Virus record (IMG/VR): IMGVR_UViG_3300020576_006967
Location: 1-64,000 of that record
Length of the DNA stretch: 64,000 bases
Reading direction: 5' to 3' (one strand)
From: a virus
Taxonomy: Duplodnaviria; Caudoviricetes
Position 1 is the stretch's first letter, and the number at the start of each line of letters is the position of its first letter. Position numbers and translations under genes: made by a program. The notes below the pieces were generated by a model. It had not been told where the DNA came from and did not search any database. It saw only the letters and a list, made by a program, of their open reading frames with translations. This document shows, one piece after another, positions 747 through 908 of the stretch.

Positions 747-854
747 ATGAAAAATTATTCTAACATATCAAACCTTCGCAGCTTACGTGCACTCTTTTTA
801 GTGCAAGTGTTGTTTGTGCTATTTAGTAGCCAGGTCGGGTATGTCATGAATTAA
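747..854 (+). CDS. attenuator leader peptide MKNYSNISNLRSLRALFLVQVLFVLFSSQVGYVMN (Leu/Arg/Phe/Val-rich)
   Basis: 35-aa ORF between promoter and terminator; codon cluster matches the downstream tRNA set; contains antiterminator strand 832-840. Confidence 0.75.
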   Translation: MKNYSNISNLRSLRALFLVQVLFVLFSSQVGYVMN

Positions 855-881
855 TTTTCTATTAAGGAAATTTAAACTTGG

Positions 882-908
882 AACCCGACTTGAAAAGTCG
901 GGTTTTTT
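882..908 (+). terminator. intrinsic terminator of attenuator 1
   Basis: AACCCGACTT-GAA-AAGTCGGGTT followed by T tract. Confidence 0.9.

Follow-up and report, generated by a model that had tools for sequence, protein, structure and literature searches.

The window, by which we mean the whole 64-kb stretch of DNA analysed here, is the first 64 kb of an IMG/VR virus record of 188,933 bp that is estimated to be 74% complete. Near its start, on the + strand, lie in succession a promoter (670-700), a 5' untranslated region (UTR; 705-746), a short leader open reading frame (ORF; 747-854), an intrinsic terminator (880-915) and an array of tRNA genes (932-4842). A search of a phage collection for near matches to positions 1-6000 of the window returned none.

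The promoter comprises a TTG at 670-672 and a -7 box, TAtcTTTG, at 693-700 (TTG-N20-TAtcTTTG), a motif that we take to be the Bacteroidota promoter consensus. It is part of a repeat that recurs with 79-80% identity at 6616-6686 and at genome positions 125048-125096, and that is shared with a second, glutamine-specific tRNA unit and with one ordinary gene. On the + strand of positions 1-10000, the pattern TTG-N17-23-TAnnTTTG occurs only at 670, at 6341 (within an ORF) and at 6627, and a scan of the + strand from 701 to 6340 revealed no promoter motif. We infer that transcription starts near 705. The 5' UTR is predicted to form a 5' hairpin between 705-711 and 736-742, and no Shine-Dalgarno sequence was found upstream of the leader ATG. 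The UTR motif CATATTTA, which recurs in most of the related units described below, stands before the start codon; UAUAAAU, immediately downstream of the promoter, can pair with it, and the two would create this 5'-terminal hairpin (705-742 in the predicted fold).

The arrangement of the parts is that of an attenuator. Between promoter and terminator lies a short ORF with both a start and a stop codon (ATG, 35 codons and TAA), and the intrinsic terminator, a 12-bp stem (880-891 with 895-906) followed by a T-run, stands directly before the tRNA genes with no promoter in between. The gap from the terminator stem to the first tRNA gene is 25 nt in the window and 10-15 nt in three other units. As no other consensus promoter precedes the array, its tRNAs must come from read-through of the terminator.

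The array, which we presume to be the controlled target, was annotated with ARAGORN, with Rfam and by eye. It encodes two tRNA-Phe, one tRNA-Tyr, three tRNA-Val, five tRNA-Leu, two tRNA-Arg and a CTA suppressor tRNA; an HNH endonuclease gene and small ORFs are scattered among these genes. ARAGORN identified Phe(GAA) twice, an intron-bearing Tyr(GTA), Val(TAC) twice, Val(GAC), the Leu species AAG, CAA, TAG (twice) and CAG, and Arg(ACG). Arg(TCG), which lacks a D-arm, was found at 3337-3414 by Rfam (31.7 bits) and its anticodon was read by eye. All the Phe, Val, Leu and Arg species that a preliminary description, made from the sequence alone, had listed for this array were thereby recovered.

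The same description had drawn attention to codons 10-26 of the leader ORF (774-824), which we regard as the regulatory block. The letters are as it quoted them: the block holds six Leu codons of five different kinds, two Arg codons (CGC and CGT), three Phe codons (TTT) and three Val codons (GTG). Ser, Asn, Gln and Ala codons also occur in the leader, and two of the six Leu codons are TTA, for which the window array has no Leu(TAA) tRNA; relatives carry this tRNA in another block. Under strict wobble rules, 16 of the 34 post-ATG codons can be decoded by the leader's own array, against a background of 0.21 (P = 6e-4), and when real genes are sampled in frame, only 0.13% of 34-codon windows reach a count of 16. 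Of all short ORFs that begin with ATG, whatever their frame, 7.6% in this AT-rich genome have the same cognate fraction. The codon composition of this single ORF alone is not beyond chance, and because 7.6% of random short ORFs match it, our case rests on the family context.

AT-rich DNA does give many spurious ORFs rich in Leu, Phe and Val, as one would expect if the ORF and its complementarity to the terminator were coincidental and the terminator merely ended the upstream gene at 360-620. We find this barely credible, since the promoter repeat sits between that gene and the leader ORF, and since four other distinct contigs carry the complete unit, altered in ways that leave frame and pairings intact, and paralogs of it stand before other arrays.

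The leader peptide itself could also be the product. It contains a hydrophobic stretch of ~19 residues, hydrophobic enough to resemble a membrane helix, and its core is conserved in orthologs; together with the 7.6% of random ORFs that share its cognate fraction, this would fit a gene for a small hydrophobic membrane peptide with a terminator of its own and no regulatory connection to the array, which would be transcribed through leakage past the terminator or from a promoter that escaped recognition. However, no promoter would fit into the 25 nt that precede the first tRNA, and a phmmer search of the peptide against 1.8 billion proteins gave a single marginal match, located inside a 1476-residue protein, and no mini-protein family. 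A degenerate search pattern for the peptide returned 20 loci, two of which were genuine.

Comparison of the five distinct orthologs revealed how the leader changes. Across codons 9-26, changes are synonymous, interchange Leu, Phe and Val, or introduce a new Arg codon; the latter is an Asn-to-Arg change at codon 9, in a lineage that lost codons 11-13. One Leu position alternates among TTA, TTG and CTT. In the conserved core, codons 18-26, all changes among orthologs are synonymous and mostly at third positions. Judged from these alignments, it is the composition of the window leader, not its sequence, that is conserved.

RNA folding placed four segments on the transcript in the manner of a classical attenuator. 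Segment 1 (763-775), the anti-antiterminator strand, pairs with 832-844 in both the minimum free energy (MFE) and the RNAalifold structures. Segment 2 (831-844) has two partners: 832-844 pairs with segment 1, and 831-840 pairs with the terminator 5' arm to form the antiterminator. Segment 3 (880-892) is that 5' arm, common to antiterminator and terminator, and segment 4 (895-915) comprises the terminator 3' arm (895-906) and the T-run. Two internal hairpins (778-813 and 818-830), found by folding and by RNAalifold, lie inside the regulatory codons and may be RNA polymerase pause structures. The antiterminator noticed in the preliminary description, 832-840 with 883-891, is present; it had been counted as 9 bp, and folding extends it to 10 bp (831-840 with 883-892, duplex energy -18.5 kcal/mol). 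When the transcript ends at 893, and the 3' arm is thus absent, the MFE structure of 705-893 pairs 831-840 with 883-892. At full length, the MFE structure contains the 763-775/832-844 helix and the terminator (z = -3.8 relative to shuffles). By these folds, the antiterminator and the terminator are mutually exclusive.

The pairings are also reflected in the orthologs. RNAalifold, applied to the five orthologs, found the terminated conformation with its 1:2 helix unaided, and in the 11-bp core of this helix 100% of the cells are paired in five of five orthologs, with four one-sided, wobble-compatible changes. Relative to shuffles, the 1:2 helix of the window unit is modest (z = -1.7, p = 0.057); a long-range helix of this type occurs in most units (Stouffer z = -5 over 19 units that are partly non-independent). 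For the antiterminator, 92% of the cells are paired among orthologs and a 6-bp core is invariant. Covariation of 832-840 with 883-891 had been suggested as a check on the pairing, and some was observed: pair 832:891 changes from A-U in the window to G-C in three orthologs, and 833:890 from G-U to G-C. This signal is thin and not significant in shuffle controls, the five orthologs being too few and too similar for significant covariation counts.

To place a ribosome on the leader, we forced a 28-nt footprint unpaired and folded the RNA at equilibrium. The terminator had a probability of 1.0 when no ribosome was placed. An A site at codons 3-14 gave the antiterminator a probability of 0.85-0.97 even on the complete transcript, and with the A site at codons 15-25 the antiterminator formed on the transcript without the 3' arm. 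Once the A site lay between codon 26 and the stop codon, segment 2 was covered, the antiterminator was blocked, and the terminator formed; since only 11 nt separate the end of segment 2 from the stop codon, the segment lies under a ribosome positioned there. Folding under footprint constraints, which had been recommended as a check, hence switched the window unit from terminator to antiterminator at early codons, and slow decoding is therefore predicted to lead to read-through. Geometry rules out the opposite logic: a ribosome standing at the stop codon extends only to ~864, well short of the terminator.

We consider it likely that positions 670-915 constitute a ribosome-mediated, multi-codon transcription attenuator that raises transcription of the 932-4842 array when decoding slows. 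The preliminary description had placed an attenuator ahead of this array, and all the anatomical parts of one are present, in support of that reading. The scheme presumes that the ORF is translated and that the host couples transcription to translation; in which direction and how strongly the unit responds, and what naturally triggers it, are likewise our inference. Transcription would begin at the promoter at 670-700, and the 35-codon leader would be translated while RNA polymerase nears the terminator. Were decoding slow at the Leu, Arg, Phe or Val codons, and possibly at Tyr codons, the ribosome would cover segment 1 and leave segment 2 (831-840) free to pair with 883-892, so that the terminator could not form and the tRNA genes would be transcribed. 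Were decoding fast, the ribosome, between codon 26 and the stop, would cover segment 2, the terminator at 880-906 would form and transcription would stop. In the case of no translation, segment 1 would pair with segment 2, and the terminator would again form. Because the products are the very tRNAs that read the test codons, the unit would regulate decoding capacity by negative feedback, combining several tRNA species in an OR logic.

The window unit belongs to a family. We identified 19 distinct units, each composed of a promoter, an ORF of 17-42 codons and a terminator, in six phage records: the window phage (G000), four relatives and a published 642-kb phage (LR756502.1). Three metagenome contigs with orthologs of the window leader were added, one of them near-identical to that of the relative G001. 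Every leader was verified by translation, in-frame start and stop codons are kept in all 19 units, and 18 of the 19 units precede tRNA arrays.

The second unit of the window (6627-6822, + strand) combines the promoter repeat, an ORF and a terminator before four tRNA-Gln genes, and its leader ORF (6692-6769) contains six consecutive Gln codons. G001, a 154-kb relative found by a promoter-pattern scan of IMG/VR, carries 37 tRNA genes in blocks, and the same promoter, short ORF and terminator precede each block. Its leader L015:17342-17431:- is rich in Ser, Trp and Arg (AGR) codons and precedes tRNAs for Ser (three), Arg(TCT) and Trp (two). L014:14856-14984:- is rich in Pro, Ala, Met, Gly, Tyr and Asp codons, and its array comprises Pro, Asp, Tyr, Ala, Gly and Met. 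L013:8783-8884:- is rich in Asn, His, Thr, Lys, Ile and Cys codons and is followed by Asn, His, Thr, Lys, Ile, Met, Leu(TAA) and Cys. The fourth, L012:1408-1515:-, encodes the window's peptide with two synonymous changes, and its array begins with Phe where the contig ends. Further units came from G002 (96 kb), L020 (a 9.7-kb contig) and the more distant G004 (49 kb).

The tails of the leader ORFs are complementary to the 5' arms of their own terminators, with a mean of -14.9 kcal/mol compared with -10.1 kcal/mol for shuffled pairings, and none of 20,000 permutations was as good. This complementarity usually extends a few bases into the terminator loop, and the sequences involved differ greatly between units. 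The window unit has the clearest antiterminator of all. Under the footprint constraint, seven of the other units flipped at one to nine codons and six never did, a long run (codons 3-15) being confined to the window unit. We consequently dropped a thermodynamic switch as the mechanism of the whole family, given that the terminator stays dominant in most paralogs under the footprint; for this reason, the family must act kinetically, as classical attenuators do.

In nearly every complete unit, codons that the unit's own array can read were over-represented (P values of 1e-3 to 1e-7); enrichment was weaker for truncated arrays, for the Phe/Glu unit of G004 and for two units of LR756502.1. When eight independent units were pooled, cognate codons numbered 110 of 243, compared with 46.4 expected (z = 10.6). 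The true assignment of leaders to arrays was the best of 432 within-genome permutations, and also the best of 120 permutations of a five-unit composite of G000 and G001. Leader codons and array tRNAs, compared by eye, do not follow a collinear order.

The more distant phage G004 has regrouped its tRNA genes and provides what amounts to a natural experiment, in which leader content tracks the tRNAs that moved (Phe, Cys and Arg). Before its Cys/Val/Leu array, the leader has seven Leu, three Val and two Cys codons and no Phe codon. The leader of its Phe/Glu array has four Phe codons, as well as Ala and Asp codons for which no matching tRNA was found, and the leader before Ile, Asn, Met and Arg (ACG and TCT) contains Ile and Asn codons, Met codons, and both CGN and AGA codons.

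These comparisons bear on the membrane peptide considered above. Paralogs that share the promoter, the spacing and the terminator code for hydrophilic peptides, each of which mirrors its own array (Gln6; Ser/Arg/Trp; Asn/His/Thr/Lys), the leader changes with the tRNA set in G004, and the ORF tails complement their own terminator arms. The preliminary description had named a membrane mini-protein conserved irrespective of the tRNA set as the finding that would speak against attenuation; what we found instead were paralog peptides that differ, are often hydrophilic and follow their own arrays. We therefore judge it very unlikely that the ORF is there to make a membrane peptide.

Alternatively, the leader RNA might sense tRNAs directly, as a T-box does, with no translation involved and the codon-like triplets serving as specifiers. 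The element stands upstream of translation-related genes, contains cognate triplets and has a terminator/antiterminator pair, all of which a T-box-like RNA would share. No T-box or other cis-regulatory Rfam model, however, matched positions 1-12000 at E <= 1. The reading frame is kept in all 19 units, the cognate triplets all fall in one frame, and codons 18-26 change only synonymously among orthologs, so that direct sensing seems to us even less probable than a membrane peptide.

Somewhat more room, albeit little, must be left for a switch that responds to overall translation capacity or to how far the infection has progressed, or one that works through Rho or RNA processing and not through the intrinsic terminator; we regard such a switch as improbable. 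The several non-cognate codons, the unmatched TTA codons and the failure of equilibrium folds to flip under the footprint in most paralogs are compatible with a general sensor, as is the single family member without downstream tRNA genes, in G004 (L069). A conserved motif ending TTGACATATTGG after five terminators in relatives also counts in favour of such a switch. Against this, a general sensor would not need leader compositions specific to each array, and the antiterminator/terminator geometry is classical.

The exceptional unit of G004 (L069:484-640, that is, G004 40484-40640) has a leader (L069:484-576) rich in Thr, Tyr, Gly, Lys, Gln and Pro codons, and no tRNA gene was found in the 8.3 kb downstream of it by ARAGORN or by Rfam at E <= 1. 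What follows it are small ORFs, a gene for a 418-residue protein and, on the other strand, an IS607-like pair. The unit may be either a relic or a controller of protein-coding genes.

Returning to the codon-matched attenuator, we examined whether individual isoacceptors or amino acids are sensed. The preliminary description had favoured isoacceptors on the grounds that many synonymous codons are used. In favour of this proposal, CGY codons go with Arg(ACG) and AGR codons with Arg(TCT), CGY making up 18% of the Arg codons of this genome, and in LR756502.1 ATA codons precede Ile(TAT). Against it stand the two TTA codons, which we rejected as evidence because the window array has no Leu(TAA). Overall, the codon usage of the leaders is no more than suggestive of sensing of individual isoacceptors.

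Several other features of these loci were recorded in passing. A motif, ACGTTnnTTGACATATTGG, whose GACA core begins with A in some copies, is located 20-60 nt past five of the attenuator terminators, in G001 (G001rc 99589), G002 (16905), L020 (rc 8225) and G004 (9082 and 40679); it has only two other loose matches in these genomes and is absent from the window unit. In G002 (rc ~16940-17050) and L071 (oriented ~1160-1270), a tRNA-like gene with a UAA anticodon loop (Leu) directly follows the terminator. It has an extra hairpin between the T-arm and the 3' acceptor strand and was missed by ARAGORN, and the leaders of these two phages contain more TTA codons.

The arrays themselves hold unusual elements. 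Between the regular tRNAs of the window are mini elements that resemble T-arm and acceptor fragments (3697-3797 and 4547-4700), and between its two tRNA-Phe genes lies a segment of ~120 nt (1010-1129) that is 88% conserved in G001, is not tRNA-like and may be a structured RNA. Pairs of tRNAs with the same anticodon, one of ~72-76 nt and one of ~84-90 nt, are frequent at 932-8049 of the window and in the arrays of G001 and G002; in the window they include Gln (76/84) and Val (73/77/86), and in G001 Asp (76/89) and Ala (75/87). It appears that class I tRNAs have long-arm twins. The tRNA with the CTA (amber suppressor) anticodon bears an intron in the window (4327-4458) and is intron-free in G001 (L015, ~1480-1552, minus strand) and G004 (L067:5295-5370). 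G001 also has a PTH2-like ORF behind the same type of promoter, with an in-frame TAG at codon 3; the suppressor tRNA and this TAG hint at TAG read-through or recoding.

The closest precedents for the window unit are the multivalent attenuators of enterobacteria, whose leaders carry Leu, Val and Ile codons (ilvGMEDA), Val and Leu codons (ilvBN) or Thr and Ile codons (thr), and in which a shortage of any one species relieves termination. The phage unit resembles them in its short leader with scattered codons for several amino acids, its alternative 1:2, 2:3 and 3:4 helices and its intrinsic terminator. Whereas they control biosynthetic enzymes and respond to amino-acid supply, the phage unit would control tRNA genes and covers up to five amino acids, and it shares no sequence or Rfam similarity with their leaders. 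Rfam models of cis-regulatory leaders (Leu, His, Thr, Trp, Phe and others) gave no match in positions 1-12000 at E <= 1 other than L20_leader at 10021-10132, which is at chance level. The genes downstream, moreover, are tRNAs and small phage ORFs and not the usual biosynthesis or synthetase targets.

Control of the decoding machinery by a leader peptide has precedents as well: pheST of E. coli has the leader peptide pheM, and a His leader peptide precedes hisS paralogs in bacilli (PMC2965389). As in those cases, a leader with cognate codons would control a component of the decoding machinery; there, the product is a charging enzyme for one amino acid, whereas here the products are tRNAs of many species. 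Like trpL, the phage unit has a four-segment logic, terminates when untranslated and has its segment 2 masked by a ribosome at the stop codon. The two adjacent Trp codons of trpL, however, lie within segment 1, while the 17-codon block of the phage unit lies mostly downstream of segment 1, so that its later regulatory codons probably need kinetics or queued ribosomes. The unit resembles a T-box in that tRNA status would be read, a choice between terminator and antiterminator made and translation-related genes controlled; a T-box binds tRNA directly and has no ORF, whereas the phage unit has an ORF and no T-box motif or Rfam match. The Gln6 unit at 6627-6822 has the same promoter repeat, build and logic, and differs from the multi-species window unit in presenting a single amino acid in one run.

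The giant phages considered here probably infect Bacteroidota, a phylum in which, to our knowledge, leader-peptide attenuation has not been established. As of 2010, it had been reported only in Proteobacteria, Actinobacteria and some Firmicutes (PMC2965389). Our full-text literature search returned no account of leader-peptide control of tRNA genes, and the paper that published LR756502.1 makes no mention of attenuation or leader peptides (PMC7162821). The logic and the anatomy of the unit are thus known; what is new is the class of target, namely tRNA genes, the giant-phage setting and the number of species sensed.

More tentatively, and with somewhat less than even confidence, we propose that these phages have split nearly the whole genetic code into tRNA blocks, each placed behind a codon-matched attenuator, in a closed-loop and isoacceptor-resolving arrangement in which only the block that is read slowly would be switched on. 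A possible setting, if this is true, is the depletion of particular species by a host anticodon nuclease or by phage-induced tRNA loss, in which case the tRNA arrays would be inducible counter-defence. The genome carries RNA-repair genes in the window, encoding an RtcB ligase (17895-19265), a Pnkp-like kinase/phosphatase with AAA_33 and metallophosphatase domains (38759-40303) and RlaP (50327-52030), a repertoire that fits a phage expecting attack on its tRNA pool.

We know of hardly any work on the regulation of phage tRNA genes, which are usually treated as constitutive codon-usage fixes. The rule by which leader codons match the array predicts which tRNAs, including odd and unrecognised ones, share one transcription unit, and the units could serve as compact natural parts for codon- or tRNA-specific biosensors. 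The idea that phage tRNAs answer the depletion of host tRNAs becomes directly testable. If our reading is correct, attenuation, familiar from amino-acid metabolism, would also govern the tRNA pool and would operate in phages of a phylum where it is barely documented, and giant phages would gauge translational demand and supply tRNAs accordingly.
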